Assembly (NCBI GenBank): GCA_964532425.1
Contig: CAZHIA010000003.1
Coordinates: 5,594 to 69,593, forward strand
Length of the DNA stretch: 64,000 nt
From: an uncultured Candidatus Saccharibacteria bacterium
GTDB taxonomy: Bacteria; Patescibacteriota; Doudnabacteria; UBA920
Direction of reading: 5' to 3'
The notes under the pieces are model-generated. The model had not been told where the DNA came from and did not search any database. It worked only from the letters and a program-made list of their open reading frames with translations. Made by a program: the position numbers and the translations under genes. Of the stretch, positions 3,877 to 64,000 are shown one piece after another. Within the stretch, counting starts at the first letter, position 1, and each line of letters starts with the position of its first letter.

Positions 3877-3893
3877 ACGGGCCATGTGGATGG

Positions 3894-4964: not shown

Positions 4965-4970
4965 GTATGT

Positions 4971-6425: not shown

Positions 6426-6541
6426 AACTGAAGCCAACATTTGACATTTAACCATTAACATTTGACCACCTTGGGCTTTGTCAAAGGTCAAATGTCACAT
6501 GTTAAATGTTATATTTTAATTGTTAATGGTTAATTGTTGAT
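6426..6541. repeat. intergenic word-repeat / palindromic element (ACATTTGACC / GGTCAAATGT family)
   Basis: TGACATTTAACCATTAACATTTGACC ... CAAAGGTCAAATGTCACATGTTAAATGTT ... TTAATGGTTAATTG. Contains the inverted copy of the ACATGTGACATTTGACCTTTG core also found at 26409 and 29713. Confidence 0.7.
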
Positions 6542-8567: not shown

Positions 8568-8710
8568 ACGATACAACAATCTAGTTAATGGAGTAATCTC
8601 TAATATCGCGAATACAGCGCAAATATACAAATGACTATTGGCCGCTCAAAGAAATAAAGGACGGTGTGCTATATTCGTATATTTGTGCTTGATTCGTATA
8701 TTCGAGATTA

Positions 8711-18900: not shown

Positions 18901-21900
18901 TGCGGGACTGTTTGGATTTTGATTACAGGGGGAAGCCGGCGGACTGACCATTGCGCTGTACGCGGTTTCGACTCCGTCATGGTTGCGGGCTTTGACGTGA
19001 AAAGAATATGAGTTTCCACATGACAAGCCGGCAAAAACAGTGCTCGTTGCCGTAACCCAACCTGAATTGGACGTAGCACTTGAGTTCTCGGCATAATATT
19101 CGGTTCCAGGAGGGTTTCCGTTCGTGTCCCAGGTTAAACGGACCGATGTGGCAGAAAGTACGGTCGTAGTGGCATTGGTTGGAATCTGTGCAGCTGTATA
19201 AATACTGCTCGTTGCGGTACTTGCCGAATTACCGGCGATATCAACCACCTGGGATTGAAACACGTATTTGGTGTTCGGCGTGAGGCCGCCACTGGTCCAC
19301 GTCGCGCCTCCCGGCGTACTCGTCGCCGAATTCGTCAGGTTGATAAAGTTATACGAAGCTATCCCGGAAAGATTATCCGAAGCTCCGGACACCACAACAT
19401 CCACATGGTCCGGATTCAGCCAATTAAACGTAATGGAACCGGGGTTCGGAGGAGTCGAGTCGAGTTTGAATGCTATACTTCCCGAATTAGCAAGGCTAAA
19501 CGGTGACGTTCCGCCGTTGCCATCAATCGCCTGCACCTCCCAATAGTACGAGCTATTATCGGACAAAACCTGCCCAGGCCCACCAATAGCATACGTTCCT
19601 GTACCAGCCAGCTGCCCCACGGTGAAACCATAGGAACCCTGCGGATTAAGCGCTGACGTGTAATCGAGCTGCGAAGAAGAAAAATTACTATTGGTATCTA
19701 TCCGAATGCGATACTTCACTGAATCCGCCCCATCAGGATCAGAAAGGTTGAATGTAAAATATGGGGACGTACTTGCAGTCCAGGTATTGGTCACGAACAG
19801 GTTCGGACCAAGCGAGCTCGGCGAATTCGGCGCATTGTTGGGAATGCCGGTGGTAATGGTTTTGTCTGTTCCATAGACCGACCCCTTTAAGTTCATGGCA
19901 AACATACGGACATGGTAGGTTGTTGACGGAGCCAGTCCGGTTAATGACGAAATGAAAGTCCCGCTCGCATTCGTTATCCCATTGCTCGCCACAGAACCGG
20001 CAGTGTCATACAACTTAAACTCCGCAACAGCGGTATTTCCGCCCCCGTTATTCGCGGAAATATTTAAACGATATTTTGCGTAAGGCGTTGTGTTGACGAA
20101 ATTAAAAGAACGCGATTCTCCATTTGCCCAGCTGACTTGGTTGGAAATTGATTGCAAGCTCACCCAAGCGCTTCCGTCCCATGCTTCAAAAGTCCAGTTG
20201 CGAGGAGAGTCGCCGCCGCCGGAATAATTATTTCCGGTTATCGTATACTTGTTGACGACAGTCGAAACAGGAAAATCGTATTCTAAATCATAACTCATCC
20301 CTTGGTTGGATGACCAGTATGTGTTCGGATTACCATCAAAAGCATTTGAGGCAGAACCGATGTTTGCTTTTGACGCGGCAGCGGTACCAGTCTCAAGAAT
20401 AGCCAGATTTACATTCGGCACGGACGGGTTTGGATAGGTTGCCCACACGCTCCCGTAACCAGTGATCTGATAAAATGGTAAATCTAAAATTGTGCCGTGG
20501 CCAGTGGCGGTTGTAGACAGAATGTCGGTAACGTCATCGGAGGTGACACTCGGTACTGACGCCGGATAGAGCGAGCCAGCCGCTCCAGCGCCGTAACCAA
20601 CCCCTCCGGAAACACTGCGTGAGACGCTGTTATTATAGACGGAGCTTAACACTGAAATCCTACCGCCGCTTCCACCACCGCCGTTATTGCAACCGTTCCC
20701 CCCGTTTGAAGTTAAACTACCGGAGCCGGCAAAGTTTGTGGTGGTGATGAAAATACTCCCGCCGCTTCCACCACCCGGACTCCAACAATTGAATGCGTTA
20801 GAACCGTTTGCAGAAATTACTCCATCAACGGTAGTTGTGCCGGTTACACTGAAAATCGCCGCACCGCCACCCGCACCACCTCCGTCATTCGAACTGCCGA
20901 ACTGACTTGAGTTCCCCCCACCACTCCCAAGATCGACTGGATTCACCAAGGACCCATAGGGGCTACCAGCATTCACCGCAGACCCGTTACCACCAGAACC
21001 ACCATATGACCCTCCGGCATTATTGTCACGAGGAGTTATTTGGGAGGTTCCCGGCCCCTGCCCGCCGACGTATCCGCGGCCGTTAACGTTTACCGAACCA
21101 CTGCCGCTTACGGTAAGGTTTCCGTTTACCTGCCAATTCAATTTATAGAGACTCGCCGAACCAGTTGTGGCGGTTGTGTTATACGCATGGGTCAACATAC
21201 CGTCAATTGTCACATTATTATACGTTCTACTCGCACCCAGTGCCGCCACCACAAGAGTTGTGCCCGAAGGGATTGTAATGTTCTGATTCTGCCTCAGCAC
21301 CGCAAGGTCACCACCACTGTCAACAACAGTGCCGGACCAAGTCAGGGACGAATAGGAGAACGATGTGCCCGATTGCGCGTAGTATGCCGAGTTGCTTAAG
21401 ATTGTCAGGACAGTTGATGTAGATGAGGATCCAACCAGGTAAACGGCTGCATTATTTTTTAGAGTCACACTATCCATCACAAAAACAGGCAACGGAGTCT
21501 TTCCATACCCACGCTCGTCTGTCGCACCAGATGAATTCAGGTTGTTGTTATCGAGAAGCAAGTCTCCATTTGCTTGGGCTGCGGCTTTCTTGTACAGCGT
21601 TCCACTGCCGCCATAGTTTGGCCATGTGGTTCCGCTGTAATAGGCATAGCTCACCGAAGACACATCTGTCGTGTACTTTATCGCAATACGACCCCCGCTC
21701 CCGTTACCAGAGGCGTTTCCGCACGCATTACCGCCACGCGCGGTGATTGCACCGTTACCCGCCAGAGTTCTCGTCACCACATTAACGCTTCCCCCGCTGC
21801 CGCCACCGGCATCCCAGCAGCTAAACGCATTCCCCCCATTAGCAGAGATAGCACCACTGACGGTCGTAGTAGCCGCTACGTTCAGAATGATTGAGCCTCC

Positions 21901-47252: not shown

Positions 47253-48716
47253 ATGCTGAAAACCAAATTTTCTCCATTTTTTTTCTTACTTGTATTTGCA
47301 ATTGTGCCTTGGCCAGCTTCCGCTGATACTTCAGCCAGTTCTACGATCGGTGATATGAATACCGCAACAGCAACCGCGCCGACATTAACCATAGGAAACA
47401 GCGCGGCAATATCCACAACTACTGCAGGCTCGGTCCTTGGCCTGCAGGCCCCTGCCAAACCCCCGCTCATACAGGCAATCGAGAATGCCAAAGCGCAACT
47501 TGTTCCGGTCAGCTTGAACCATGCATTGACACCGGTCTCCAAGAACATCAAAAATAAAAAAACGAAAAAAACGACCAAGGTTATTACCGGGTATAACCTT
47601 ACGGCTAAAGATATTGCCCTGGCCATTCTCGATCCCGCCACTCAAAACGTTACCATTGTTAAAGGCATGCAGACCGGTAAAACCATGACCTTCAATGATC
47701 CGGCGGCGGATGTTAAATTGACCAGCTTCAATGGCGTCAATAGCCGCTTTTCCGTGAGCCGGCCTGCGGGAGGCACGGTCATTGCCCTAAAATATCTCAT
47801 CACCGGCACGGAATCCAGCAGCAAAGCAGCCATTGAGAATAGCATCTCGGAAGCCATCTACGTCCCCTATTCACCGGCACTTTCCAGCCCGGATGTCGTT
47901 GCCTATGGCGCCAATTACTTAAATGGTGTTATCAGACAGGTTACCGCAGGCTTGCAAGGCCTCCCTTCCCAGGCAGTACCCGGAAAAACCATCACCGAGG
48001 CCATCAAACCGTCACTGGTCAAGGCTCTGGTCTACGCCGAACATACGGATACCGGCAAGATCCTTTCCGGCAATCAAGATGACATCTTAGGCACCATAGA
48101 CCAGTTGAATATCTTGTTTGCTACCAACGAAGAAGACACCTACCGCTACAGCGTCAGCTCGGCCGGCGCCCGCGGTATTGCGCAATTTATGCCCTCCACG
48201 TACGCTTCACTGGTCCAGCGCCACCCTGAAGCGGCGCTGAATCCCGATTTTGTCGCGGGCATGTCCGACCATGTCAACGCCATTAAGGCCATGTATCTAC
48301 TCATCGACGACTATGCCGGTACGGTGCGCGTCAAAGCCCAGCAAGGCTATGCCGAAGGCCAACTGTTCGATTATGGAGCTGCTTCGTACAACGGCGGTAC
48401 CACGCGCGTAGCCAAGGCCGTCAATGCGTTCGGACAAAACTGGAACGCGGACCGGTCAGGCGAGATTGCCAGCATGCAGGCGCAAATCAATTCGCTGTCC
48501 TCGCAATCGAAAACCTTAGCTTCAAAGATCAAGAAGGCGAAGGACAAAAAGACCAAGGCTGATCTGCAGGCGCAGCTGTCCCAAGTCAAGAACCAGCTTG
48601 CCTCCACCTCAAACCAACTGGACACCATGCAATCAGCTACTCTGCGGAATGAAACTGTCAATTACCTGAAAAAAATCTACAATGTCATTCATGTCTTTAA
48701 TGACCAGCAGATTTAG
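47253..48716 (+). CDS. secreted protein with lytic-transglycosylase-like motif and C-terminal coiled coil
   Basis: Signal peptide MLKTKFSPFFFLLVFAIVPWPASA. SSAGARGIAQFMPSTYA resembles the SLT-domain motif S.AGA.GLMQ.MP.T. C-terminal heptad-rich KKAKDKKTKADLQAQLSQVKNQL. Confidence 0.5.
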   Translation: MLKTKFSPFFFLLVFAIVPWPASADTSASSTIGDMNTATATAPTLTIGNSAAISTTTAGSVLGLQAPAKPPLIQAIENAKAQLVPVSLNHALTPVSKNIKNKKTKKTTKVITGYNLTAKDIALAILDPATQNVTIVKGMQTGKTMTFNDPAADVKLTSFNGVNSRFSVSRPAGGTVIALKYLITGTESSSKAAIENSISEAIYVPYSPALSSPDVVAYGANYLNGVIRQVTAGLQGLPSQAVPGKTITEAIKPSLVKALVYAEHTDTGKILSGNQDDILGTIDQLNILFATNEEDTYRYSVSSAGARGIAQFMPSTYASLVQRHPEAALNPDFVAGMSDHVNAIKAMYLLIDDYAGTVRVKAQQGYAEGQLFDYGAASYNGGTTRVAKAVNAFGQNWNADRSGEIASMQAQINSLSSQSKTLASKIKKAKDKKTKADLQAQLSQVKNQLASTSNQLDTMQSATLRNETVNYLKKIYNVIHVFNDQQI

Positions 48717-51125: not shown

Positions 51126-52994
51126 CTATTTTTCTATCGTATCACCCTTGCCGTAACCATCCACTTCCGACTGCGGTAATGTGGTAATCTGCTTCGGCTT
51201 GATTCTGCGGTTGTTGAAGGCTTTCAGAGTTAGCGGCCTCAGCTGTCCTTTTTGCACCAGATAGACCGTACCGTCCTTGTCACCCTTGATGATCGTGCCA
51301 TCCTTGGGCGGGACCGGCATGCCAAGCTGCCACGTACTGGCTACGTCCTGGGAAAAGACGTAATCAGGAGTAATCTTGCGCTGCTTGATCACATAATCGG
51401 AGATGGGGTGCATGGACCCTTCCTTATACTCGTATTGCTGCCCGGTCTTAGAACCGATGGCGAAGAACGTGTAATCTTTAGGCGCCGCAAATCCTCCGGC
51501 TGGCAGCGCGTCCACCTCCTCGGGAGCCAACGAAGCAATCTGCTTATAGCTGAATCCGCGGTTCTTGAAGATTTCACCGAGCACCGGCTGTTTCAGACCA
51601 TTCTGGATCTGATAGACCGTACCGCTATTACTGGCTTTGACCAGAGTGCCGTCAAGCGGCGGCACGAAGCCGTTTTGCGTATACGTGGAAATCTCATCAT
51701 CCGGCACGGAATAGATGGACTTGGCCGTCACCTTGCGCTGGCCGAACGTAAAGGCCGAAAATAGCTTAATCTTGCCGTCCTGGACCAAATATACGGCCTT
51801 ATTCGTGACTCCGCGGATGACCGTGCCGTCTTTCGGCGGCAAGACTGTTCCGTTGTCGAACAGCATGGCATCCTGAGCGCTGACGGTAATTACCTTTTCC
51901 GGATTGAGACCGCGTTGTTTGAGCACTAAGTCAGACGCCAGGTGTTTGATATTATTCTGGAACAAATATTTTTTATTCTCTCCCGCTACCGTCACGATGG
52001 TATCATCGACCGGACCTAAAACCTTGTCGGTTTGATAGCTGTCGAACTCATTCGGAGAAACGACAACTGTGGTGTTCAAATTCAAATTGCGGGCTTGGGC
52101 GACGAACAACGGCACCAATTGTTTGACTCCATTCTGAATTATGTACGTATCGAGCCCGTTGGCGAGCTTCAGGAGCGTACCGTTTGGATATTTGAACCAA
52201 GCCTGAAAATATTTCCAAAAATTATAATTGCCGTTATAGACATGCGGCGTAAAACGGTATAGCGCGGCAGTCGCGCGGTTGGAAAGCTGCAGGGTCTGCT
52301 GCGGCATAATGCCGTCATAGCCGCCCATAGTGTTTTCCAAAGTAATGACGTCCCCGACATGGGAAACGCTGCCGTTGAATTCCGGCCCGCGCCCATTCGG
52401 CGTGGAAAATGATTTCATCAAGGATTTGGCAGCGCCTAAATAACGGTTGCCGCTGGAATCGAAATTCCCGAACAGTTGATAATAGAATCCCGGGTACATA
52501 CTCTGGCTGCAGCCGGTGCTATCGGGGCAGCCGAAGCCCAAAGCAAAATCCAGCGCCCGCTGGAGTCCCTGCTGGTTCGGATCGGAAAAGGCGGTAATCA
52601 GCCCCTGTTCCTTATTGAGTGTGACCAAAATAACTTGCGGGTTCAGGCCGCTGGCCCGCGATGCGTCCCAGATCAATTCGGCTGCCGTACGCAAACGCCC
52701 GAGATTCGGCTGTGGATCATCAAGCCCTTGTTTGAGCATGGTCACCGTCGGCTCTTTGAGTTTGACCAAAAAATCAGGACTCGTATTGGCTAGGACCGAC
52801 CCCTTAATTTCCAGAAACTTTTGAATACCCTGCGGCCCGCCGAATGTTTCCATATCGCCAAACACCTTATCGTCAATAAGTTTTTCCGGATTGAACGCCG
52901 AGTCAACCGCCTGGCCTTGTGCCAGGGCAGGAAGCGGCAATAAGACCAACATGATTATCACAAGCAGCTTGGCGAATTTTTTATTGATGGGCAT
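51126..52994 (-). CDS. secreted protein (622 aa) with N-terminal uncharacterised domain and three C-terminal about 60-aa repeat modules
   Basis: Signal peptide MPINKKFAKLLVIIMLVLLPLPALA. Repeats DGTVIRGVTNKAVYLVQDGKIKLFS... / DGTLVKASNSGTVYQIQNGLKQPV... / DGTIIKGDKDGTVYLVQKGQLRPL... shared with the adjacent S8 protease. Confidence 0.6.
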   Translation of the reverse strand: MPINKKFAKLLVIIMLVLLPLPALAQGQAVDSAFNPEKLIDDKVFGDMETFGGPQGIQKFLEIKGSVLANTSPDFLVKLKEPTVTMLKQGLDDPQPNLGRLRTAAELIWDASRASGLNPQVILVTLNKEQGLITAFSDPNQQGLQRALDFALGFGCPDSTGCSQSMYPGFYYQLFGNFDSSGNRYLGAAKSLMKSFSTPNGRGPEFNGSVSHVGDVITLENTMGGYDGIMPQQTLQLSNRATAALYRFTPHVYNGNYNFWKYFQAWFKYPNGTLLKLANGLDTYIIQNGVKQLVPLFVAQARNLNLNTTVVVSPNEFDSYQTDKVLGPVDDTIVTVAGENKKYLFQNNIKHLASDLVLKQRGLNPEKVITVSAQDAMLFDNGTVLPPKDGTVIRGVTNKAVYLVQDGKIKLFSAFTFGQRKVTAKSIYSVPDDEISTYTQNGFVPPLDGTLVKASNSGTVYQIQNGLKQPVLGEIFKNRGFSYKQIASLAPEEVDALPAGGFAAPKDYTFFAIGSKTGQQYEYKEGSMHPISDYVIKQRKITPDYVFSQDVASTWQLGMPVPPKDGTIIKGDKDGTVYLVQKGQLRPLTLKAFNNRRIKPKQITTLPQSEVDGYGKGDTIEK

Positions 52995-53004
52995 AGAGTA
53001 TCCG

Positions 53005-53165
53005 GTTAATGTTTTTAGTAGAAATTCATTGAAACTGATTGAAATTAGTCGTGTCTCACGATTAGTTTCAATAAATTTCTACCAGTTTCTATTAATTTCG
53101 TGCAGTATGCAGCAACAATTTTGTCAATTTAAAATTTTGCTCAATTTTGTCAATTATAATATATA
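53005..53165. repeat. composite intergenic palindrome (GAAATTGATTGAAATT / TTGTCAATTT words), copy 4
   Basis: GAAACTGATTGAAATTAGTCGTGTCTCACGATTAGTTTCAATAAATTTC plus TTTTGTCAATTTAAAATTTTGCTCAATTTTGTCAATT. Confidence 0.65.
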
Positions 53166-55004
53166 CGCTTCCCCTTTCGGGTAGTTCGGTACATCCTTGT
53201 CCGAGATTATAAAAAGCGGAAATACGTTAAGACCGCGCTGCAGGTAGAAACCGCGGTTAATGGGATGCAAAGCTCCGGCCACTACCCAATATACGGTCTG
53301 GCCGCGGCTGCCCCGGACCAGCGTACCGTCAGTCGGCGCCAAAAACGGCCCTGTAATCCACGAACTGACTTCCGGGTAACTGACCGTGTTAACATCGCTG
53401 AATTTGAAACCGCGCTGCTGAAAAACCTGGTATGTAACCGGCTGCTTTAAACCTTTGGAAATTATATAGACCGTACCGTCGGAGATACCTTTAACCAGGG
53501 TATTTTCGAGCGGAGTCGCATATGCCCCCTCCGGATACATGCTGAGCTTGGCTTGGGACACAATCTTAATGCCGATGCCAAAGAAGCGCTGATTATAGAC
53601 AAAAGAAGAAACAAGCCGCCGCTGGCCGCCCGCAATCTGGTACACCGCATCGGAGTCCTGAGATTTGACCAAGTCACCATCCATAATAGCCGTCACCAGA
53701 TCGCTCTGAAGCGCTTTCACCACATTAATCCTGCCGGTTCCCAGCTTGCCTTTGCACGAACCGCCGCCGCATTGAGTCAGGTTCAAATCATCTATCGGAT
53801 CGACTGCGGAAACAATTCGGTCGCGAATCTGGATATTGGTCGCTGTTGGATACATGGCTTTCAGCAGCACCGCTTCGGCTGAAACGAATGGTGCAGCCAA
53901 GCTGGTCCCAGAAACGTAGGCATACGAATTCGGAGCCAGATTGTTGTTCACCGGCTCATGGTTGATGGTGGAAAGAATGCGCTTGCCCGGGGCGGACACG
54001 TCGATACAATTTTTGCCATAATTGGAAAAAGTAGGCTTCAGGTCATTCTGATCCACCGCAGCTACGCCGATGACCATATTTTGGTCATTATCATTGCAAA
54101 TAGGAAAGACCGGTTTTGCATCAAGATCGCCTCCCGTGGTAGCAACATCGTTTCCGGCAGCGGCAACAATAACCACTCCTTTACCGAATGCGTAAGAAAT
54201 GGCGCTGGCCAGGGCAGCATCATGGGAGAAACCACTGCCACCGAGACTAATATTGATAATAGATGCTTTATGATCGGTGGCCCACACAATAGCTTCTGCC
54301 ACGGTTGCGGCATCACCCCGGCCTTCTGCGTCGAGGGCTTTGAGCGGCATAACCGTCACATTCCAGGCGCCACCTGCAATCCCCTTGTTATTATTCGGTA
54401 CGGCAGCCAAAATCCCGGCGATCAGCGTGCCATGACCGTTATCATCGGAATTCACGTCACCACGGAGGGGCTGGTTGGCCACAAAATCAAAACCGTCAGC
54501 CTTGCGGATACCTTGAAGGTCCTCATGGGTAAAATCTATGCCAGTATCGATGATAGCCACAGTCGCGGTAGCGGTACCGGTAGTTTTTTCCCAGGCAATC
54601 GGGAACCCCGCCTTGGTAAGACCCCACTGTTTGTCAATATCCCGGGGATTCAAAGTAAACCCAGGGTCATTAACCGTCACGGTCTCTTCCTGCATCTGGC
54701 CTAAAGGCTCCAGGGATACCACCGATGACCCGAAGCGGCGCTGTAGTTCCTCTAAAGAATATACGGAGCGGAAGGTATAAATGTTTCTGAATTGCTGTTC
54801 ATGAGAAAAAACAAACCGATGGCGCACATCAGTCCCCGCCTGCTGCAGCACGGCTGCATCATCTGATTTCAATTGTACGACGTAGGAGGCTGGGGCTGAC
54901 GCATTCGCTGGTGCGGTGATACTGCCGGCCATAGCAAAAAAAACTGAGAATATCAGTACGGTTATCGTGATGTGCGTGCGTTGTGAGGCTACCTTTAATT
55001 CCAT
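53154..55004 (-). CDS. subtilisin-like serine protease (S8) with C-terminal triplicated about 60-aa repeat modules
   Basis: Catalytic triad motifs AIIDTGIDFTHEDL (Asp), HGTLIAGILAA (His), GTSLAAPFVSAEAVLL (Ser). C-terminal repeats DGDLVKSQDSDAVYQIAGG..., NTLVKGISDGTVYIISKG..., DGTLVRGSRGQTVYWVVAG.... Confidence 0.85.
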   Translation of the reverse strand: MELKVASQRTHITITVLIFSVFFAMAGSITAPANASAPASYVVQLKSDDAAVLQQAGTDVRHRFVFSHEQQFRNIYTFRSVYSLEELQRRFGSSVVSLEPLGQMQEETVTVNDPGFTLNPRDIDKQWGLTKAGFPIAWEKTTGTATATVAIIDTGIDFTHEDLQGIRKADGFDFVANQPLRGDVNSDDNGHGTLIAGILAAVPNNNKGIAGGAWNVTVMPLKALDAEGRGDAATVAEAIVWATDHKASIINISLGGSGFSHDAALASAISYAFGKGVVIVAAAGNDVATTGGDLDAKPVFPICNDNDQNMVIGVAAVDQNDLKPTFSNYGKNCIDVSAPGKRILSTINHEPVNNNLAPNSYAYVSGTSLAAPFVSAEAVLLKAMYPTATNIQIRDRIVSAVDPIDDLNLTQCGGGSCKGKLGTGRINVVKALQSDLVTAIMDGDLVKSQDSDAVYQIAGGQRRLVSSFVYNQRFFGIGIKIVSQAKLSMYPEGAYATPLENTLVKGISDGTVYIISKGLKQPVTYQVFQQRGFKFSDVNTVSYPEVSSWITGPFLAPTDGTLVRGSRGQTVYWVVAGALHPINRGFYLQRGLNVFPLFIISDKDVPNYPKGEAYIL

Positions 55005-55113
55005 TAAAAATTCAGATTATTCAATGGTTCCATACGGGAATCCATGGCTCACGTCGGGCGAGGCGAACCACCGCTTCCTATAAACTATAACCTACAAACT
55101 ATAAACTATTCCC

Positions 55114-55833
55114 TTATTTGTACTTTCCCGACCACAAATTCAACCGTACTTGAATAACTTCAAGTAGCATGTTGACCATGCCGGAAAACTTCACATGACT
55201 TGCCTCGTCATTGACCCACGTAATAGGCAGCTCCTGGATCTTGCAGCGGGAGCGTCGCGCCAGGGCAAGGATCTCGACATCAAAGGCCCAGCGGTAAATG
55301 GTCTGTTTGGGAAAAATGGCTTGGGCTGATTTGGCCGTAAAAGCCTTAAATCCGCATTGAGTGTCAGTGACACCGACCGGCACCAGAATATGGACAATAG
55401 TCCTAAAGCACCAGCCGAGAAATTCCCGGATCATTTTTTGATCCTTGGCCACATGCGAGCCGGCAATGCGCCGGGACCCGACCACCGCATCAAACCCCTG
55501 GTCAAAGTAAGGCAAGAAATTGCCGATTTCGTCGATCTTGGTGGAGTTGTCCGCATCCATAAATACGCGAACATCTCCGCTTGCTTCCAGCATGCCCTGC
55601 TTGACCACCCACCCTTTCCCGTGATTTTCCTGGTTGTCCAGCAAGCGAATACGCGGAATTTGCGGCTGTAGTTGTTTCACTACTTCGGCGGTATTGTCTT
55701 TGGAACCGTCATTCACCACCACAATCTCCGACTCATAACTCTGCGCCGACAGGTATTCATTGACTGAAATGAGGGTGTGGGAAATGCGGGATGCCTCGTT
55801 ATACGCCGGTATAACGACCGATAATTTTTTCAT
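55114..55833 (-). CDS. GT2 polyprenyl-phosphate glycosyltransferase (dolichyl-phosphate mannosyltransferase-like)
   Basis: KLSVVIPAYNEASRI ... EIVVVNDGSKDNT ... DADNSTK ... GSRRIAG is the typical DPM1/ArnC-like GT2 arrangement. Confidence 0.8.
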   Translation of the reverse strand: MKKLSVVIPAYNEASRISHTLISVNEYLSAQSYESEIVVVNDGSKDNTAEVVKQLQPQIPRIRLLDNQENHGKGWVVKQGMLEASGDVRVFMDADNSTKIDEIGNFLPYFDQGFDAVVGSRRIAGSHVAKDQKMIREFLGWCFRTIVHILVPVGVTDTQCGFKAFTAKSAQAIFPKQTIYRWAFDVEILALARRSRCKIQELPITWVNDEASHVKFSGMVNMLLEVIQVRLNLWSGKYK

Positions 55834-55947
55834 TTTTGATATTTTAATGGCACCTATAGTATACCAAAATCAGCCGCTTTTTCATAATTCCCTGCCTTAG
55901 CAAAGACGAAGGTGTCCGATTTTTTGTTACGAAAAGAACCAGCAGCA

Positions 55948-56406
55948 TTACTGCTGCTGGTGCGAGAGATTTCTGCACTGGGCGGATTGATGCGCATGGA
56001 GCCTGGAGACCACCTGTGCCGGTAGGCACGCGGACAAATCGCTTAAGAGGTCTGGATCCTGTCCTTGGCCGCCGAGAATGGTTTCGATCATTTCCACAAG
56101 CAATAGCATAGCATCTTCTACGAGTGGGTGATCTAAAGCCAGCCGGCTTGAAGTTTGCAGACGCTTAATCTCCCCTTCCAGAAGCTGAAGATCGGAAAGG
56201 TTCAGATTGGTATTCCTGCGTATGCGGCACAAACCTCTCAGCCGAGCAAGCGGTTTTTCGTTTTTCAATGCCTCAATCTGCAAAAGGATTTCCGGATGAG
56301 TGCCGGCGGTGTCCTGGACGGGCTTGAGACGCAAACCTGCTGGTTTACGGTAATCCGAAGTTTCAAAAGTTCTCATACTGCCATCAGTTTCTGCGACGTG
56401 CATCAT
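55948..56406 (-). CDS. hypothetical protein (152 aa)
   Basis: Clean co-directional ORF. No family recognised. Confidence 0.4.
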   Translation of the reverse strand: MMHVAETDGSMRTFETSDYRKPAGLRLKPVQDTAGTHPEILLQIEALKNEKPLARLRGLCRIRRNTNLNLSDLQLLEGEIKRLQTSSRLALDHPLVEDAMLLLVEMIETILGGQGQDPDLLSDLSACLPAQVVSRLHAHQSAQCRNLSHQQQ

Positions 56407-56513
56407 GCCTCCTTACCACCACTATAGCAGCGCGATTTAGGGAACGCAATTCAGATTACGCACGAGCGTCTCCATTCACTATCATATGAAATGTGCCGGG
56501 CAGGGACCGCGCA

Positions 56514-56547
56514 CGATTAAAAACCGCCGCACGGTATCGTGCGGCGG
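56514..56547 (-). terminator. rho-independent terminator after galE
   Basis: Hairpin CCGCCGCACGGTATCGTGCGGCGG followed by UUUUUAAU. Confidence 0.6.
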
Positions 56548-56579
56548 TACATACCCGGCTATTTCGCCTCAACGCTTTT

Positions 56580-57758
56580 CTACACGGAATTTTTTTCCAT
56601 AGAGCGCTGCATTTGCGTCCAGCTGGTAGCAATAATCGTATCCAGGTCCGAATGCTGCAATTCAAACCCAAGCTCTTCCCTGAGCTTCCTGTTGTCAGCC
56701 ACTGTGGCCGGAGCATCCCCGGCGCGGCGCGGTCCAGCTTCCATAGGAATCATGCGTTCCAGAATTTCCGACGCTTTATTGACAACTTCCCGCACGCTGC
56801 TGCCGTGTCCGGTGCCAATGTTGTATATGCGGTAGCTTTCGGTCGCTTCAAGTTTGGCAAGTGCTACGACATGGGCACGTGCGATATCGAGCACATGGAC
56901 ATAATCGCGGACGCAGGTGCCGTCCTGGGTGTTATAATCAGTTCCGTTGATCAAAAGGTACGGACGCTTGCCCAAGACCACTTCCAGAACTATCGGAATT
57001 AGGTGAGACTGGTGCGTCGGCATAATCTCTCCGTCAAAATCGCAACCGCAGGCATTAAAATACCGGAACACCACGGCTTGAAAACCGGAAAAATGGCAGT
57101 GGTATTTAATCAGGCGTTCGGCCAGCAGCTTGCTGTAGCCGTACGGGTTATTCGGACTCAGTTTGGCGGTCTCCGGAATCGGCACAACCTGTTGTTCGCC
57201 GTAGACGGCAGCGGTTGAAGAAAATATGATTTTTTTGACGTCATATTCAGCCATCGCCGAAAGCAGGACAGCCGTATTCAGCGTATTGTTCTTTAAATAC
57301 TTCTCCGGCTCGCGGACCGACTCTTCAACTTCAATACTCGCGGCAAAATGCATGACCGCATAAAAGCGTTCCTGGGCAAAAATATCACGCAGAAGGTTCG
57401 CATCTCCGACACTGCCTTCAATAAAACGGACTCCGGCCGGGACATTCTCGCGTTTACCGCTGGAAAGGTTATCCAGGATGGTCACCTGGTAGCCGGCTTT
57501 TAACAGTTCGCGGGTGGCATGTGCGCCAATATACCCGGCTCCCCCGGTCACCAGAATCCGCCGATTCTGGCTTTCCTGCTGCTGGAGACTCTCGATGGCT
57601 GATTCCAGCACCGCATGGTCGCTGCCGTTCTTAAGCAGCTGGTTGTATTTATCCACGGTCAATACCACTACTTCCGGACGGTTTTGCAGGTTCAGCACCA
57701 TGCCGCCTCCCCTATTTTTCACTTCGGCTATCAACTCTTCTAAATATTGTTGATCCAT
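56580..57758 (-). CDS. galE: UDP-glucose 4-epimerase with about 65-aa N-terminal extension resembling a Phd/YefM-type fold
   Basis: RILVTGGAGYIGAHATRELLKAGYQVTILDN, YxxxK region and C-terminal GalE. Upstream in-frame MDQQYLEELIAEVKNRGGGMVLNLQNRPEVVVLTVDKYNQLLKNG with no Met at the epimerase domain start. Confidence 0.8.
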   Translation of the reverse strand: MDQQYLEELIAEVKNRGGGMVLNLQNRPEVVVLTVDKYNQLLKNGSDHAVLESAIESLQQQESQNRRILVTGGAGYIGAHATRELLKAGYQVTILDNLSSGKRENVPAGVRFIEGSVGDANLLRDIFAQERFYAVMHFAASIEVEESVREPEKYLKNNTLNTAVLLSAMAEYDVKKIIFSSTAAVYGEQQVVPIPETAKLSPNNPYGYSKLLAERLIKYHCHFSGFQAVVFRYFNACGCDFDGEIMPTHQSHLIPIVLEVVLGKRPYLLINGTDYNTQDGTCVRDYVHVLDIARAHVVALAKLEATESYRIYNIGTGHGSSVREVVNKASEILERMIPMEAGPRRAGDAPATVADNRKLREELGFELQHSDLDTIIATSWTQMQRSMEKNSV

Positions 57759-57873
57759 AACCTTAGCGCAAATTAATTTACCCAGGCACCTTTCGCGAAT
57801 GAACAAGCGCCTGAGGCGAAAATATCACTTTCTATGAACCGACAGGCAGAACGATATAAAAAGGTGCCTGGGT

Positions 57874-57918
57874 CAAAAAAAACAGCTTCGTTTTTCAAAA
57901 TCAAGCTGTTTTTGTTTT
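57874..57918. terminator. bidirectional rho-independent terminator
   Basis: Hairpin AACAGCTTCGTTTTTCAAAATCAAGCTGTT with T-runs on both sides. Confidence 0.6.
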
Positions 57919-58061
57919 GATTTTTCGCTTGTGGGTATTTGTACTAAACCAATCATAGCACGGTAAAAAAATAATGCAAATTTTCAGACCTGTAACGTGC
58001 CGATTTATCGGCCGAAAATGAGAAAGCCGATAAAATCGGCACGCTACGATTGTTGAACCTT

Positions 58062-58097
58062 CATAGAAAAAGCCACCCCAGTGTAAGCCAGGGTGGC
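58062..58097 (-). terminator. rho-independent terminator after 58118 gene
   Basis: Hairpin GCCACCCCAGTGTAAGCCAGGGTGGC followed by UUUUUCU on the minus strand. Confidence 0.55.
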
Positions 58098-58117
58098 CGC
58101 AAAGCGCTCGCCTCCGG

Positions 58118-59248
58118 CTAGCGCAAATAGACGTAAGCAGTGCCGATGGTCCCCACATCAGCGGGATCCTTTGTGTTCGTGTAGGTGACCATCAGCAGGT
58201 GGGCCCCGTCGGAAACAATGCCGGTGCCGACCAAATTTTTCGGAACCTGAAGGTTGATCTGGTCGAGTCCCGGAAACTGGGACGGTCCGACGTAGGTGAG
58301 CGCGTTCGGGATCTCCTTGTTGTCCAGGAGAACCTTAAACGTATACCCGGTCATTTTGCGGACCGGATTTGTGCTCGGATCATCGATCCCGAGCCCCGTC
58401 GCCCACAGAATGAGCACATATGAAGGCAACGACGAACTGTACACGGTGGCCGGCGTGTCCTTGCCCGAGGTCGTGTATTTGTCCTTGCCCTCGTTGGCAT
58501 ATTGAATGATCGCCGTGCCCCCGCTCTGGAAGAATCCAGGAACGAGCGGCTTGACCGTCACGGTCATAATATCACCGATCAGCGACCCGAACTGATTCTT
58601 CCGCCGCACATGCACCTGGATGTTTCCGAACGGCGTGAACAACGGAACCACGAAATTGATCTGTGTGTTGCTCACATAGTACAGCTGGGCAGGAGCCCCA
58701 TTGACCAGAACCTCGACATCGAGTGCCGAAGTCGGCAATTGCCCGTTGGCCGTGAATATGGCCGCCGGGTTCAGCGTGAACCCAGTTCCCATGATGGTCG
58801 CGATCTCCATGGGCGCAACTATGCCGTAGGATTGGAACGTAGCGCCATGGACCACACCTAACTCATCGACGGGGTTGTCTTTGTTCACGATCTGAACCCA
58901 TGCACTCGCCGTGGTTGTCGCACCAGTGGCATCGGCACAGGTATACGGGTAGTCTACCGTAACCATCGACAAAGTCGTCGGCAGTAACGCCTGTAACACT
59001 TCTTCTCTGCCCGGCTGCCGCGCTGCGTTGTTATTCCAGACCGCGCGGCAGGATGTTGCATCCGAACCGGCCGCGATGATGAGCCCGAACATGTCCCCGC
59101 TCCGAATGCGGAGCGGATGTCCGGCATCCGTGGTCACGAATGAGTTAACGCCCTTGCCGGGCGGAACCACGCGCGCGATCACGTTGAATTGTGGCGCCGC
59201 CGAAAGCAGGCCGACGGAAAACAAAGCGCAAAATAGTTTGCTTAACAT
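58118..59248 (-). CDS. hypothetical secreted protein (about 376 aa, Ig-like/beta-rich)
   Basis: Start at MLSKLFCALFSVGLLSAAPQ (signal peptide) preceded by SD CAGGAGGGG. Beta-rich, no catalytic motif recognised. Confidence 0.55.
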   Translation of the reverse strand: MLSKLFCALFSVGLLSAAPQFNVIARVVPPGKGVNSFVTTDAGHPLRIRSGDMFGLIIAAGSDATSCRAVWNNNAARQPGREEVLQALLPTTLSMVTVDYPYTCADATGATTTASAWVQIVNKDNPVDELGVVHGATFQSYGIVAPMEIATIMGTGFTLNPAAIFTANGQLPTSALDVEVLVNGAPAQLYYVSNTQINFVVPLFTPFGNIQVHVRRKNQFGSLIGDIMTVTVKPLVPGFFQSGGTAIIQYANEGKDKYTTSGKDTPATVYSSSLPSYVLILWATGLGIDDPSTNPVRKMTGYTFKVLLDNKEIPNALTYVGPSQFPGLDQINLQVPKNLVGTGIVSDGAHLLMVTYTNTKDPADVGTIGTAYVYLR

Positions 59249-59380
59249 CTGTATCCCCTCCTGAGGGTTGTAAACGTTCACCTGTAGCTGTCTCATGACA
59301 GCCATTCAAGTTACACAATAGGCGCACCCTCTCTTGGATGCGCCTGTTTTGGAACTTGATGTTTGTTTAGTATTGTTCCC

Positions 59381-59408
59381 GTAGGGGCCGGTCGCGACCG
59401 GCCCCTAC
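59381..59408. mobile_element. 28-bp perfect palindromic element GTAGGGGCCGGTCGCGACCGGCCCCTAC (intergenic copy)
   Basis: Perfect palindrome centred on TCGCGA, immediately 3' of the giant repeat gene. Same family as 35120, 39389, 41359. Confidence 0.6.
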
Positions 59409-59426
59409 AAATTCTGTCCACTAGTA

Positions 59427-62400
59427 CTAGTTATTCAGTATCAGCCACGAAAGCAACTTCCGCTTCCGGTACACTGCGAATCCTGCCATCGCCAGGGCGC
59501 CAAAGGCCAAAGCCATGGTATCCGCACCGGTCTTCGGGGCAATGAACGCACCCTGGACCTGCGGGGTATTGATGTTGATCCGCACGGTGTTGCCGTACGT
59601 ATTGGTCATGACGTAATTCAGGTTGCTTGCCAGGAAGTACTTGACGCGCACCTGGAAGGACTTGCTGACACTGCCGCCGGCCGGAATGGTGACTGCTGGG
59701 AAGGTAATAACCTGCCCGTTCACCTGGCCGCCGCCGTAATCAACCATGTCCGCAAACGGCAGGACACCGGAGAGGTCATCGGTAATGACGAAGTTGGTCG
59801 CCGGGGAATTACCGTTGTTTGTCACAGTCAGCGTATAGGTGATGAAATCTTCCTTAGATGCAGGCACGGACTGGGCATCCACATTCTTGGTAATGTTCAT
59901 CGCCCGCTTGTTGTAAGTCAGGTTAATGTTACCACCCTGAACCTGGCCGACGTAGACCCAAGCGCTTGCTTGGACCTGGCCGACGTTATCAGCCTGGGCA
60001 TAAGCAATGTTCTGAATGCCGTTCTGACCATAGGTAGTAGTCGTGTAAGAGGAGTTGACTCTGGCCTGGAATGTGATAGTGCGGGACTGGTACGAACCCA
60101 AGTTTCCAATGTACAGCGTGCCGCTGTTGCCAAAACTGTCGGAAGCTCCGGTACCGTCCATCTGCACCGTGCCCGGTACGAAGCTCAAGCCTTGCGGCAA
60201 GGTATCGGTTACGCGCACATTGGTCAGATTCTGACTGCCCGGGTTCTGGACGCGAATCTGGAACTGCACAGTATCACCGCTACTGACTGTAACACTGCTC
60301 TGGTATGAGGCGCCGTTTAATGTGCGCACCAGTTTAGTAATGGTCAGTTGTCCAGGCTGGTTGTATTGCTGGATCACGATAGTGTTAGCAATGAGCAGCA
60401 CGTTGCAGTTGGCATCGTACATATAGAAGGTGTACGAATTACCCGCGGTCATGTTGGTTACCTGGTAGGTACCGTTCGGGCCGCCAGTAATAACCGTGTT
60501 TGACAAGGTGCCCTGGGTAATGCGGATCTGGTTGGAGCCGCTGGAAGACCAGGTCAAAGTTGAGGACCAGGTGTTGCCGTTCTGTACCGGAGTACTAAAC
60601 GTCAGACTGGCATTAGTGTTGACCACGCACTGGTTATTGACATCCTTGCGGATGACCAAGGTCGCCACCAGCGCACCACAGGAAGAGGTGTCATACAGTT
60701 TGACGATGTAGTTCTTATTGGCCTGAATCTGGTTGAATGTATAGGAACCGGGGCTGACGGTAATATTTTGCACCAGCACGACTTCCTGTCCGTTATCCGG
60801 ATTGACGTAAGTCAACCGCATCGGGTTGGAACCGGAATAGCTGTAGGCAATCACGGCCTGGTAGTACCCGTTGCCCATATCGGTAATTGCACCAGTGGTC
60901 AGGCTCACGTTGCTGTTGATGACACAGACCGGGGGCTGCTGGCTAATCTGGACCGTACAGATCGAAGATTGGCCGTTGCTTGTGACTGTTGCGGAGTATT
61001 GGCCGGAGCCACTGAAGACGTTCGAGAACGAAGAACCGCTGCCGGTCCTGCCGTTGCTGGAGGTCCAGGAATACGTGCCATTACCGCCAGTGGCGGTGAA
61101 GTAGACAGTCTGGCCGGAGTTGGCAGTCTGGCTTGCCGGGCTGCACTGCACCTGCTGAGGATTCGGAGGCGTACTGACATTCACGTTACAATTAGCCGTC
61201 GTGCTGCCATCGCTGACCGTTACGGTCTTGCTGCCGCCGCTGGCATAGGAAGTGTTGAAAGAAGAGCCATAACCGCCGGTCGGGTAACCGCCGTTGGCAG
61301 TCCAGGTATAGTTTCCCGTACCGCCGGTAGCGGTAAAGTAGACGGTCTGGTTGACATTGGCACTCTGATTGGAAGGAGAACACTGCAAGGTCTGGGTCGG
61401 CGGAGTGGACACCTGTACCGTACAATTTTGAGACTGTCCGTTGCTGGTTACAGTTGCGGTCTGTTGGCCGGCCTGGTTAAAGACATTCGTGAAGGTATTT
61501 CCGGAGCCGGTCCTACCGTTGGTGGAGGTCCATGAGTATGTACCGTTACCGCCGCTGGCCGAGAAGTACACGGTCTGTCCGGTCTGGGCAGTTTGGCTCG
61601 CCGGGCTGCAGATGAGCTGCGGGTTGTTCGGTTGGTTGACAATAGCCTTACAGGTGGCGGTCTGTCCGCCGCTGGTCACGGTGACAATGTAGCCATTCGG
61701 ATTTGCGGAATTGTAACTCGTGTTAAAGGATAACCCGCTGCCTGAGGTGTTTGAAGAAAGCGGAGCAGACCAGGAGTACGCGCCAGTGCCGCCGGTGGCG
61801 GTGAAGTAGACCGGCTGGCCGACATTCACCGTCTGGCTGGGAGGAGAACACTGCAAAGTCTGAACTGGCGGAGTGCAATCGCGCACTGTAAAACTGACTG
61901 TACGGCTAATGCCGGAAATGGTCGCTGTCTTGGTCCAGTTGCCAATATTGGCCGTGGTCCAGGTTGAACCCACGTCACTCCAGAATCCTAAACCGCCGCT
62001 GCCGGAAACAATCTGGCCGACGTAGTAGTTGTTCTCACCGGTATTCTGGCCGTTGAGGGTGGAATTCCACAAGATCCGTTCGCCAATCAAATTCGCGGTG
62101 GCCACGATGGTGTAACGGGTGTTTTGGCCGACACAGAAATTGTTGTCGGTCGTTAACGTGAAATCTTTTTGCTGTGGCGGAGTCTGGTTCACCGTGACAT
62201 TACAATTGGAGGATACTCCCCCGCTCGTTACGGTGACTGTTTTGGCACCGCTCGTGCTGTAGGAAGTTGAGAAGCTGTAGCCGGAACCGCTCGCCGGACT
62301 GCCGCCATTGGCAGACCAGGAATAGGAACCGTTGCCGCCGGTCGCCGTAAAGTAGACTGGCTGGCCTTGGTTGGCTGTCTGGTTGGAAGGAGAACACTGC

Positions 62401-64000
62401 AAGGTCGGATTCGGAGGCGTGCTAACGTTCACGTTACAATTAGCAGTCGTACTACCATCGCTCACCGAGACAGTCTTTGAGCCGCCCGAAGCATACGAGG
62501 TATTGAACGAAGAGCCGTACCCACCGGTCGGGTAACCACCGTTAGCGGTCCAGGTATAGTTGCCCGTACCCCCAGTTGCGGTAAAGTAGACGGTCTGGTT
62601 AACGTTGGCATTTTGATTGGACGGAGAACACTGTAATTGAGTTGGCGGAGGCGGTGTAACGCCGCAGTTCTTCACGTCAAAAGATACCGTGCGTGAAATG
62701 CCGTTGATGGTCGCTGTCTTGGTCCAGTGACCAATATTGGCCGTGGTCCAAGTAGAACCGACATCACTCCAGAAACCTAAACCGCCGCTACCAGAGATAA
62801 TCTGACCGACGTAGTAATTATTCTCGCCGGTATTCTGGCCATTCAAGGTGGAATTCCAAAGGATTGACTGACCGATCAAATTGGCAGTAGCTGTGATGGT
62901 ATAACGGGTATTCTGACCCACACAGAAGTTGTTGTCAGTAACCAGCGTGAAATCATACTGCTGAGCCGGCTGCTGATTGACCGTGACATTACACGTCGAG
63001 GATTGGCCGGAACTGGTAACGATCACCTGTTTTGAACCGGAAGCAGAATACGTAGTAGAGAAGGACTGGCCATTGCCGGAAGCCGGAGAGCCGCCGGTGG
63101 CAGACCAGGTATAGCTTCCATTGCCGCCCGTTGCCGTAAAGTACACCGGCTGGTTCGGATTAGCAGACTGGGTCGCCGGGCTGCACTGCACTTGTTGGGT
63201 AGGCGGAGTGGCTACAGCGACATTGCAATTCGCTGTGGTACTGCCATCGCTGACCGTAACTGTTTTAGCACCGGATGAAGCGTATGAAGTATTAAACGAG
63301 GAACCATAACCGCCAGTCGGATAGCCGCCATTAGCAGTCCAGGTATAATTACCGGTACCGCCGGTGGCTGTGAAGTACACGGTCTGATTAATATTGGCGT
63401 TTTGGTTAGAAGGAGAGCACTGCAAAGTCTGAGTCGGAGGTGGGGTCGTACCGCAGTTCTTCACGTCAAAAGATACCGTGCGTGAAATTCCGTTGATGGT
63501 CGCTGTCTTGGTCCAGTGGCCAATGTTGGCCGTGGTCCAAGTGGAACCGACATCACTCCAGAAACCAAGGCCGCCGCTACCGGAGACTACCTGGCCCACA
63601 TAATAATTATTTTCACCGGTATTCTGACCATTCAAGGTCGAATTCCACAGAATCGACTGGCCAATTAAATTGGCAGTAGCTGTGATAGTGTAACGGGTAT
63701 TTTGTCCGACACAGAAATTATTGTCTGTGACTAATGTGAAATCATATTGCTGGGCCGGCTGCTGGTTGACGGTCACATTACAATTGGCTGTAGTTCCCCC
63801 GCTCGTAACAGTGACCTGTTTAGATCCGGACGCTGAGTAGGTCGTAGAGAAGGACTGACCGTTGCCATTAGACGGGCTGCCACCATTGGCTGACCAAGAG
63901 TAATTACCATCACCGCCGGTTGCGGTAAAGTAGACCGGCTGGTTCGGATTGGCCGACTGGGTTTGAGGGGAACACTGCAAGGTTGGGTTCTGAGGCGTTG
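59427..64000 (-). CDS. giant repetitive surface protein (partial, at least 1517 aa; N-terminus beyond window) with Ig-like repeat units, two DUF11 domains and LPXTG-like C-terminal sorting signal
   Basis: Alternating about 95-aa (LQCSPSNQ.AN.NQ.VYFTATGG.G.Y.W.ANGG...) and about 110-aa (YDFTLVTDNNFCVGQNTRYTI...GLGFWSDVGSTW...) modules repeated at least 6 times with near-identical DNA. DUF11-like ITYTLTVTNNGNSPATNFVITDDL. C-terminus APKTGADTMALAFGALAMAGFAVYRKRKL. Confidence 0.85.
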   Translation of the reverse strand, partial: TPQNPTLQCSPQTQSANPNQPVYFTATGGDGNYSWSANGGSPSNGNGQSFSTTYSASGSKQVTVTSGGTTANCNVTVNQQPAQQYDFTLVTDNNFCVGQNTRYTITATANLIGQSILWNSTLNGQNTGENNYYVGQVVSGSGGLGFWSDVGSTWTTANIGHWTKTATINGISRTVSFDVKNCGTTPPPTQTLQCSPSNQNANINQTVYFTATGGTGNYTWTANGGYPTGGYGSSFNTSYASSGAKTVTVSDGSTTANCNVAVATPPTQQVQCSPATQSANPNQPVYFTATGGNGSYTWSATGGSPASGNGQSFSTTYSASGSKQVIVTSSGQSSTCNVTVNQQPAQQYDFTLVTDNNFCVGQNTRYTITATANLIGQSILWNSTLNGQNTGENNYYVGQIISGSGGLGFWSDVGSTWTTANIGHWTKTATINGISRTVSFDVKNCGVTPPPPTQLQCSPSNQNANVNQTVYFTATGGTGNYTWTANGGYPTGGYGSSFNTSYASGGSKTVSVSDGSTTANCNVNVSTPPNPTLQCSPSNQTANQGQPVYFTATGGNGSYSWSANGGSPASGSGYSFSTSYSTSGAKTVTVTSGGVSSNCNVTVNQTPPQQKDFTLTTDNNFCVGQNTRYTIVATANLIGERILWNSTLNGQNTGENNYYVGQIVSGSGGLGFWSDVGSTWTTANIGNWTKTATISGISRTVSFTVRDCTPPVQTLQCSPPSQTVNVGQPVYFTATGGTGAYSWSAPLSSNTSGSGLSFNTSYNSANPNGYIVTVTSGGQTATCKAIVNQPNNPQLICSPASQTAQTGQTVYFSASGGNGTYSWTSTNGRTGSGNTFTNVFNQAGQQTATVTSNGQSQNCTVQVSTPPTQTLQCSPSNQSANVNQTVYFTATGGTGNYTWTANGGYPTGGYGSSFNTSYASGGSKTVTVSDGSTTANCNVNVSTPPNPQQVQCSPASQTANSGQTVYFTATGGNGTYSWTSSNGRTGSGSSFSNVFSGSGQYSATVTSNGQSSICTVQISQQPPVCVINSNVSLTTGAITDMGNGYYQAVIAYSYSGSNPMRLTYVNPDNGQEVVLVQNITVSPGSYTFNQIQANKNYIVKLYDTSSCGALVATLVIRKDVNNQCVVNTNASLTFSTPVQNGNTWSSTLTWSSSGSNQIRITQGTLSNTVITGGPNGTYQVTNMTAGNSYTFYMYDANCNVLLIANTIVIQQYNQPGQLTITKLVRTLNGASYQSSVTVSSGDTVQFQIRVQNPGSQNLTNVRVTDTLPQGLSFVPGTVQMDGTGASDSFGNSGTLYIGNLGSYQSRTITFQARVNSSYTTTTYGQNGIQNIAYAQADNVGQVQASAWVYVGQVQGGNINLTYNKRAMNITKNVDAQSVPASKEDFITYTLTVTNNGNSPATNFVITDDLSGVLPFADMVDYGGGQVNGQVITFPAVTIPAGGSVSKSFQVRVKYFLASNLNYVMTNTYGNTVRININTPQVQGAFIAPKTGADTMALAFGALAMAGFAVYRKRKLLSWLILNN

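Follow-up and report, generated by a model that had tools for sequence, protein, structure and literature searches.

The window that was analysed, 64,000 nucleotides (nt) of contig CAZHIA010000003.1, closes within a long minus-strand gene whose product is very probably a Sec-exported, sortase-processed and wall-anchored fibrillar adhesin of an ultra-small, Candidatus Doudnabacteria-like Patescibacteria bacterium. The C-terminus of this adhesin appears to be a lineage-specific (A/P)PxTG version of the LPXTG-class sorting signal. The call of visible codons, domains and repeats refers to the 3′ 4.57 kb of the gene that the window holds (Table 1).

The stop codon of the adhesin gene was found at 59427-59429 on the minus strand, and no stop codon occurs upstream of it before base 64000, leaving 1,523 codons visible. 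An earlier note, made from the letters of this DNA and a list of its open reading frames (ORFs), had described a giant surface protein of at least 1,517 amino acids (aa). The long minus-strand frame is real, but the figure of 1,517 aa results from counting the listed ORF from the first in-frame TTG only. A profile search with an internal module retrieved the complete product, a 2,348-aa NCBI protein (P0041) encoded on a 285,837-bp contig and 100% identical to the window translation across 1,523 residues. The match places a further 825 aa (2,475 nt) of the gene beyond base 64000. Since P0041 and the window most likely come from the same assembly, the match completes the gene and gives no independent confirmation of the repeat count. 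P0041 starts with MMKRLNTIFSFKVGMVLAVVVFIGAAAAVALAPRK and carries a signal or anchor sequence at residues 1-31, the N-terminal Sec signal having been judged by eye.

The adhesin ends in FIAPKTGADT-MALAFGALAMAGFAVY-RKRK-LLSWLILNN. The tripartite layout of pentapeptide, hydrophobic helix and basic cluster, which the earlier note had read as a sorting signal of the sortase or exosortase kind, passed a curated sortase-substrate model. The 47-aa tail alone scored 19.3 bits against TIGR01167 LPXTG_anchor (cut-off 15.9), with the match stopping at the basic cluster, and the tails of homologues scored 21.9-22.4 bits. A scan of the full 1,523 aa at E ≤ 0.01 reported no LPXTG-class model; with the tail alone and the limit relaxed to E ≤ 10, LPXTG-class models were the only ones found (Rumino_NPXTG below its cut-off). 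In the AlphaFold model of the C-terminal 314 aa, a transmembrane helix (residues 285-302) was followed by a short second helix (residues 304-312) formed by the extra tail. The sorting signal is shared by 40 database homologues of these 314 aa, and some homologues have already been named 'LPXTG cell wall anchor domain-containing protein [Patescibacteria group bacterium]' by NCBI and the Joint Genome Institute (JGI). A sorting-signal profile run against 5.8 billion proteins, with 322 candidates scored, returned one 60-aa fragment.

When one genome per GTDB species was scanned, 80 orthologous loci were obtained, all in Patescibacteria and labelled mostly as Candidatus Doudnabacteria, with many others as 'uncultured Candidatus Saccharibacteria'. 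The earlier note had made its proposal depend on conservation of the motif in homologues, and the P, T and G were found to be invariant in all 80 orthologues. Position 1 was A in 67, P in 11, I in 2 and L in none, bearing out the reading of A in place of L, and position 3 was K in 61. The residue ahead of the motif was mostly V, I or T, itself preceded by F or Y. The distance from TG to the C-terminus was always 30-35 aa, and the last seven residues followed the consensus [LI]-[LMF]-K-[LF]-I-F-[ATNS].

A sortase gene, for which the earlier note had advised searching the genome, was found beside the orthologues in related genomes, though not in the window itself. In 35 of the 41 informative close orthologues, a homologous sortase was encoded on the same strand, 47-3,424 nt upstream, and about half of these were directly adjacent. 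The closest informative locus (L003/L024) lies on a contig of 202-425 kb from a Doudnabacteria metagenome-assembled genome and shares synteny with the window downstream of the adhesin gene, where both carry an epimerase, a family 2 glycosyltransferase (GT2), an S8 protease, a protein of about 621 aa, an opposite-strand protein of about 490 aa and a Wzx-like flippase. Upstream of its orthologue, L003 carries a 498-aa PF04203 sortase. This enzyme passed the generic sortase model TIGR01076 (40.4 bits, cut-off 39.35) and remained below the cut-offs for class C (47.4 versus 160 bits), class D (47.3 versus 165), class E (42.2 versus 160) and class F (25 versus 166); no match to the class A and B models was found. 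If the order of genes in the related loci is a guide, the sortase gene of the window genome would be expected a short way upstream of the adhesin start, some 2.5 kb past base 64000.

The sortases next to the orthologues formed a uniform set. The motifs YISGHSS, LSTCWP and RLVVFG, which supply the His, Cys and Arg, were invariant in 37 sortases of 400-505 aa. In each, about 95 cytoplasmic residues at the N-terminus precede a single membrane helix, which a long linker joins to the catalytic domain (e.g., L016 4117-5427; loci L004-L083), and the linker contains a conserved D-x-D-N-S-G-N-G-L motif plus an Asn-rich low-complexity stretch. Only one signal-bearing protein per 20-kb locus was found across the 80 loci. 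More than half of the Candidate Phyla Radiation (CPR) genomes have sortases (PMC6744442). Our literature search returned nothing specific on a natural APKTG motif or on the motif and substrates of CPR sortases.

Immediately before the sorting signal, the two DUF11 domains that the earlier note had reported were confirmed above the cut-offs of both Pfam (PF01345, 67 bits versus 24.6, in two stretches) and TIGR01451 (75.7 versus 24 bits), and the related DUF7507 was matched too. DUF11 has been renamed CLIPPER, a CnaA-like stalk domain of fibrillar adhesins in which an Asp-catalysed Lys-Asn isopeptide bond was established by crystallography and mutagenesis; some DUF11 domains lack the bond (PMC12617251). 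Domain 1 matched the sequence of PDB entry 9IFR (E = 6.7e-4), with the Asp of VTDTLP aligning with the Asp-748 region. The candidate isopeptide residues are K13, D56 and N121 in domain 1 and K162, D198/D199 and N261 in domain 2, and the candidate Lys, Asp and Asn were kept in 16-20 of 20 family members in both domains. The model of the tandem (predicted local distance difference test score, pLDDT, 83) matched tandem immunoglobulin (Ig)-like domains generally, including the isopeptide-bearing C-terminal domains of AgI/II. The CLIPPER domains of the adhesin would probably be locked by Lys-Asn isopeptide bonds.

The remainder of the protein is a long rod. Maps of the PKD, B and C modules were drawn with hidden Markov models (HMMs) built from the modules of the window itself. 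In full-length P0041, the signal or anchor sequence is followed by an unannotated N-terminal domain (residues ~44-205), one fn3-like C module, five 263-aa PKD-B-PKD′ super-repeats, three PKD modules, two C modules, two DUF11 domains and the C-terminal signal; the fifth super-repeat closes with a more divergent PKD module. The totals are 14 PKD-like, 5 B and 3 fn3-like modules, predicted to form a rod of disulfide-bracketed Ig-like modules, and a Cys pair brackets every PKD, B and C module in the map. PKD modules span about 78 aa and B modules about 105 aa, and one super-repeat corresponds to 789 nt. The PKD family (PF00801) was matched by Pfam at 102 bits (gathering threshold 23.5) in five stretches and by the window-derived HMM in nine copies, and the C modules matched fn3 at 20.4 bits, below the cut-off of 25. 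In the Pfam scan, no family was found for the B module or for the N-terminal domain. Relatives of the B module numbered 98 at E ≤ 0.001 among 1.84 billion representatives, and the full-length ones bear the same C-terminal signal. An AlphaFold2 model of the B module, made from a 29-sequence alignment, was a nine-strand beta-sandwich (pLDDT 93) whose fold matched only generic immunoglobulin domains in the PDB (template-modelling score ~0.45-0.55). The map of P0041 thus has the layout of a fibrillar adhesin, namely signal peptide, distal non-repeat domain, repeated stalk and cell-surface anchor.

On the proposed mechanism, the adhesin would after export be retained in the membrane by the hydrophobic helix and RKRK, until the dedicated sortase would cleave APKTG between T and G and transfer the protein to an amine of lipid II/peptidoglycan. 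The pair of CLIPPER domains next to the membrane would serve as a tough base, from which the disulfide-stapled Ig rod of about 20 modules would project the N-terminal domain and the B modules off the cell; these would bind a partner, for which a host-cell surface is the most plausible candidate. The minus strand of the window at 573-8630 encodes SecA, MurB, a Mur ligase, a patatin-like phospholipase and MurG, indicating that the Sec export route and the lipid II acceptor are present.

Several points weigh against a sortase-processed, wall-anchored adhesin. No sortase homologue was found within the 64-kb window by tblastn and Pfam scans, and the genome's own sortase was not seen. In the group of distant orthologues (<55% identity, ~680-830 aa), only one of the 20 loci had a sortase within 10 kb. 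The 8-10 conserved residues past the basic cluster fall outside the canonical sorting signal, and no recognisable ligand-binding domain was found in the N-terminal domain or the B module by family and fold comparison. We infer the cleavage at APKTG, the attachment to the wall, the isopeptide bonds, the disulfides and any binding activity.

The earlier note had also described two alternating module types of very high nucleotide identity and had taken them as a sign of recent expansion, contraction or phase variation. Modular repeats are present, with 9 PKD-like, 3 B, 2 C (fn3-like) and 2 DUF11/CLIPPER units visible, but the high nucleotide identity is not. Tandem Repeats Finder reported no array, its 500-nt limit being below the 789-nt period, and given this period the repeats were detected by a repeat-family search plus our own scripts. 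In pairwise comparison, the B modules were 87-95% identical in protein and 76-85% in DNA, the three PKD′ modules (window aa 192, 455 and 871) 92-97% and 74-83%, and the 263-aa super-repeats 72-89% and 68-78%, respectively; DNA identity over all PKD pairs was 53-83%. The longest exact stretch shared within the visible gene was 38 nt, and only nine such stretches reach 20 nt. Between B1 and B2 there were 35 synonymous and 5 non-synonymous codon differences, giving a synonymous divergence (dS) of 0.85 and a ratio of non-synonymous to synonymous divergence (dN/dS) of 0.016, and B3 differed from the other B copies by a dS of 1.2-1.5. Over the repeat copies as a whole, the Nei-Gojobori method gave a dS of 0.85-2.2 or saturation and a dN/dS of 0.016-0.2. 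At positions with the same residue, identical codons were modestly more frequent than under independent codon choice, and in some pairs equally frequent. Near-saturated dS with low dN/dS indicates old, selectively kept duplications, and the repeat copies are accordingly each under purifying selection.

That the repeats are instead recent, near-identical duplications which expand and contract as a contingency or phase-variable locus, or owe their identity to an assembly artefact, is highly improbable. Module number and order do differ among species, the orthologous gene of a related scaffold contains an N-gap, and no contig in a short-read assembly of the same strain reached across the gene. 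However, contingency or phase-variable loci are recognised by near-identical tandem DNA repeats, and here the copies were 53-85% identical in nucleotides, their synonymous sites were near saturation with proteins 87-97% identical (B and PKD′ modules), codon identity at identical residues came near random expectation in several pairs, and the short-read contig breaks at a palindrome past the stop codon, not within the repeats. Because the copies can be told apart, assembly collapse is not an issue, and they are a poor substrate for slippage or frequent homologous recombination. Active scrambling of synonymous codons against recombination was considered as well: one pair was below random (z = -2.1) and the others at or above it (z up to +4.7), a spread that points to ordinary saturation, and scrambling was rejected. 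Across the 80 orthologues, module counts vary (0-6 PKD, 0-3 B and 0-4 C) and the orders differ too. The evolution of the rod is therefore one of slow module shuffling, over long periods, and not of rapid slippage. The repeats are near-identical as protein and near-saturated at synonymous sites, a caution on method: protein-level identity can hide DNA divergence, and copy-number instability should not be assumed from it.

The other alternatives concern the C-terminus and the assembly of the protein, and each is less well supported, as is a phase-variable locus, than a sortase-processed, wall-anchored adhesin. The option of an exosortase, archaeosortase or rhombosortase signal (PEP-CTERM, PGF-CTERM, GlyGly-CTERM), which the earlier note had left standing, can be set aside almost completely: the layout of motif, helix and basic cluster is common to all these systems, but the tail has no PEP, PGF or GG motif and no PEP-CTERM-type match, LPXTG-class models alone matched it (TIGR01167 above its cut-off), and the conserved neighbouring enzyme is a PF04203 sortase. 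It is unlikely, but less so, that the adhesin stays anchored in the membrane by its C-terminus, with APKTG as an uncleaved juxtamembrane segment and the helix plus LxxLIF tail as a permanent anchor. Such an anchor would suit a tail ([LI]-x-K-[LF]-I-F-x) that is conserved beyond the needs of transient retention and lies outside the LPXTG_anchor model, the lack of an adjacent sortase in most distant orthologues, and the unseen sortase of the window genome; it would not explain why P, T and G are invariant in 80/80 at a fixed spacing to the C-terminus, why the tail passes the curated model, or why sortases neighbour 35/41 close orthologues. Improbable, more so than the membrane anchor, is a role as subunit or tip of a sortase-polymerised pilus, as with Gram-positive class C sortases. 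The neighbouring type of sortase scored about equally on the class C and D models, both below cut-off, one homologue has been labelled 'fimbrial isopeptide formation D2 family' by JGI, and DUF11-type isopeptide domains are known in pilins. Yet no YPK-type motif ([YFW]P[KR]) occurs anywhere in the 2,348 aa of P0041, pilus loci carry several pilin genes where these 80 loci carry a single signal-bearing gene per 20 kb, and the size and fibrillar-adhesin layout suit a monomeric stalk.

Table 1. Features of the adhesin gene and its 3′ flank, in window coordinates
Feature	Position	Strand	Basis or remark
3′ 4.57 kb of adhesin gene, residues 826-2348	59427..64000	-	Frame open to window edge; P0041 identity
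Nine PKD-like Ig modules interleaved with three B modules; first three units are 789-nt super-repeats	60927..63980	-	Pfam PKD, repeat families, module map
B module copy 1, 105-aa Ig-like beta-sandwich	63429..63743	-	No Pfam match; AlphaFold2 pLDDT 93
B module copy 2	62640..62954	-	95% aa, 85% nt identity to copy 1
B module copy 3	61857..62165	-	87% aa, 76% nt identity to copies 1 and 2
Two C modules, fn3-like beta-sandwiches, one Cys pair each	60360..60929	-	Own HMM; sub-threshold fn3
DUF11/CLIPPER domain 1	59949..60350	-	Pfam, TIGR01451; candidate triad K, D, N
DUF11/CLIPPER domain 2	59568..59924	-	Pfam, TIGR01451
C-terminal sorting signal overall	59430..59540	-	TIGR01167; kept in 80 orthologues
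APKTG	59526-59540	-	Sorting-signal pentapeptide
Hydrophobic helix	59469-59516	-	16 uncharged residues
RKRK basic cluster	59457-59468	-	
Extra tail LLSWLILNN	59430-59456	-	Past basic cluster
Perfect 28-bp GC-rich palindrome GTAGGGGCCGGTCGCGACCGGCCCCTAC	59381..59408	.	18 nt past stop codon

The palindrome that the earlier note had placed immediately after the gene is indeed perfect and 28 bp long, but as a repeated element it did not hold up, no second copy being found in the window even at 3 mismatches. Palindromes of 28 bp are not expected by chance in the window. The RNA fold was a 13-bp hairpin (-31.1 kcal/mol, z -3.5) that lacks a U tract. Of the 80 orthologous loci, 68 had a GC-rich hairpin (9 bp or longer) within 80 nt of the stop codon, mostly A/T-flanked like a bidirectional intrinsic terminator. 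Because orthologues have hairpins at the same position, the palindrome is best read as a terminator or 3′-end hairpin; it is probably a transcription terminator or 3′ stabiliser of the adhesin gene, not a mobile or repeated element. The short-read Logan contig SRR11567520_48748 (locus L002, window 55079-59387) comes from an independent assembly of the same strain; it was 100% identical over 4,309 nt and ended 7 nt inside the palindrome, which thus behaves as a break point in assembly. Two other window proteins were matched only on short Logan contigs of SRR11567520, and no exact 60-nt match turned up among JGI metagenome contigs.

The composition of the adhesin is extreme, with T, S, G and N making up 48% of its residues. 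GC content was 0.53-0.56 in window 58001-64000 compared to about 0.49 elsewhere, and GC skew flips sign over the adhesin gene; both are consistent with the amino-acid composition and do not indicate foreign origin. A 255-aa antisense ORF (60768-61535, plus strand) lies inside the gene. Nothing supports it as a gene, and the biased Thr/Ser/Gly/Asn codon composition probably gave rise to it. In the WOOD18 / palsa_1336 scaffold, the orthologous adhesin gene is broken by an N run (L003 9400-9560) and split into products of 741 aa and 492 aa, and database entries of the adhesin family are often gap-split fragments of this kind.

Several neighbouring genes were also noted. An S8 subtilase (window 53154-55004, minus strand), with a mycosin-like protein as its best NCBIfam match, below the cut-off, and a 622-aa secreted protein with no family assignment (51126-52994, minus strand) are kept downstream of the adhesin in L003, and a functional link, e.g., in adhesin processing, is possible. 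Between the adhesin and the epimerase, a 395-aa protein (58118-59305, minus strand) has a TIG domain and matched TIGR03437, 'Solibacter uncharacterized C-terminal domain', at 109.8 bits versus 29; it is absent from the syntenic L003 and may be a lineage-specific insertion. Within the minus-strand block, one sizeable gene alone runs on the plus strand (47253-48716); it matched PF07996 (type IV secretion system proteins) weakly and has a counterpart in L003 at the same position and orientation. The first giant ORF of the window (15973-24354, minus strand) encodes 2,793 aa with fn3, F5/8 type C and Rha78A-like Ig domains and an N-terminal signal-anchor, without a C-terminal sorting signal; this protein would thus be attached, if at all, by another route than the APKTG adhesin.

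To our knowledge, little has been established on the host attachment of CPR/Patescibacteria beyond type IV pili. In an uncultivated Doudnabacteria-like lineage, the conserved cassette of a sortase and a giant adhesin, with a rod whose content varies among species, is a specific candidate for the determinant of attachment. Knowing that the motif is (A/P)PxTG and never LPxTG would sharpen surface-proteome prediction for the lineage. More tentatively, and as a possibility that we regard as the weaker bet, the (A/P)PxTG motif, the [LI]x(K)[LF]IF-x tail and the adjacent 400-505-aa sortase outside classes A-F may together make up a Patescibacteria-specific one-substrate class, in which the cytoplasmic extension of the sortase (about 95 aa) could recognise the tail of the substrate; the adhesin might then be the principal determinant of host attachment, with module composition setting host range.

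Compared to Gram-positive LPXTG proteins (TIGR01167; MSCRAMM and AgI/II type), the adhesin is alike in its N-terminal signal, distal domain, Ig-like stalk, isopeptide-type domains and C-terminus of pentapeptide, helix and basic residues. It differs in having Ala (or Pro/Ile) and never Leu at position 1, in the extra conserved tail past the basic cluster, and in belonging to a Patescibacterium and not to a Firmicute or Actinobacterium. With the CLIPPER stalk of 9IFR (Acinetobacter silvestris B9T28_05395), it shares the family matches, the aligned Asp, the conserved Lys, Asp and Asn and the stalk position on the anchor side; the stalks of that type are long tandem arrays with an OmpA-like anchor, whereas two copies stand beside a sortase signal here.

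For the APKTG motif, Clostridioides difficile SrtB can be regarded as the nearest well-studied parallel. This sortase cuts both SPKTG and PPKTG at the T-G bond, whereas LPETG is not accepted (PMC4155245). Its substrates CD2831 (PPKTG) and CD0386 (SPKTG) are alike in the small non-Leu residue, the P-K-T-G and a nearby acidic residue, and PPKTG itself is present in 11 of the 80 orthologues. In contrast, Ala dominates here, APxTG is not among the motifs tested in C. difficile, and the sortase next to the orthologues, with its 400-505 aa and long N-terminal extension, is not of class B. The class E sortases of Actinobacteria and their LAxTG motif are alike as a lineage-specific, Ala-containing variant of LPXTG, but there Ala replaces Pro at position 2, whereas here Ala stands at position 1 and Pro at position 2 is invariant, and the L003 sortase reached only 42 of the 160 bits required for class E. 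The engineered Staphylococcus aureus SrtA-F40 prefers Ala at position 1 and ligates APKTG peptides (PMC9126251). The pentapeptide is the same; there it is read by a laboratory-evolved mutant, and here it is the natural consensus of a lineage with an adjacent sortase. In the searchable literature, APKTG occurs only as the substrate of this engineered SrtA mutant (PMC9126251). A natural Ala-preferring sortase could also serve as an orthogonal protein-ligation tool, since APKTG has so far been addressed only with the engineered mutant. The system is set apart from known ones by its Ala/Pro-first motif, its extra conserved tail and a sortase with a long N-terminus that scores below all class A-F cut-offs.

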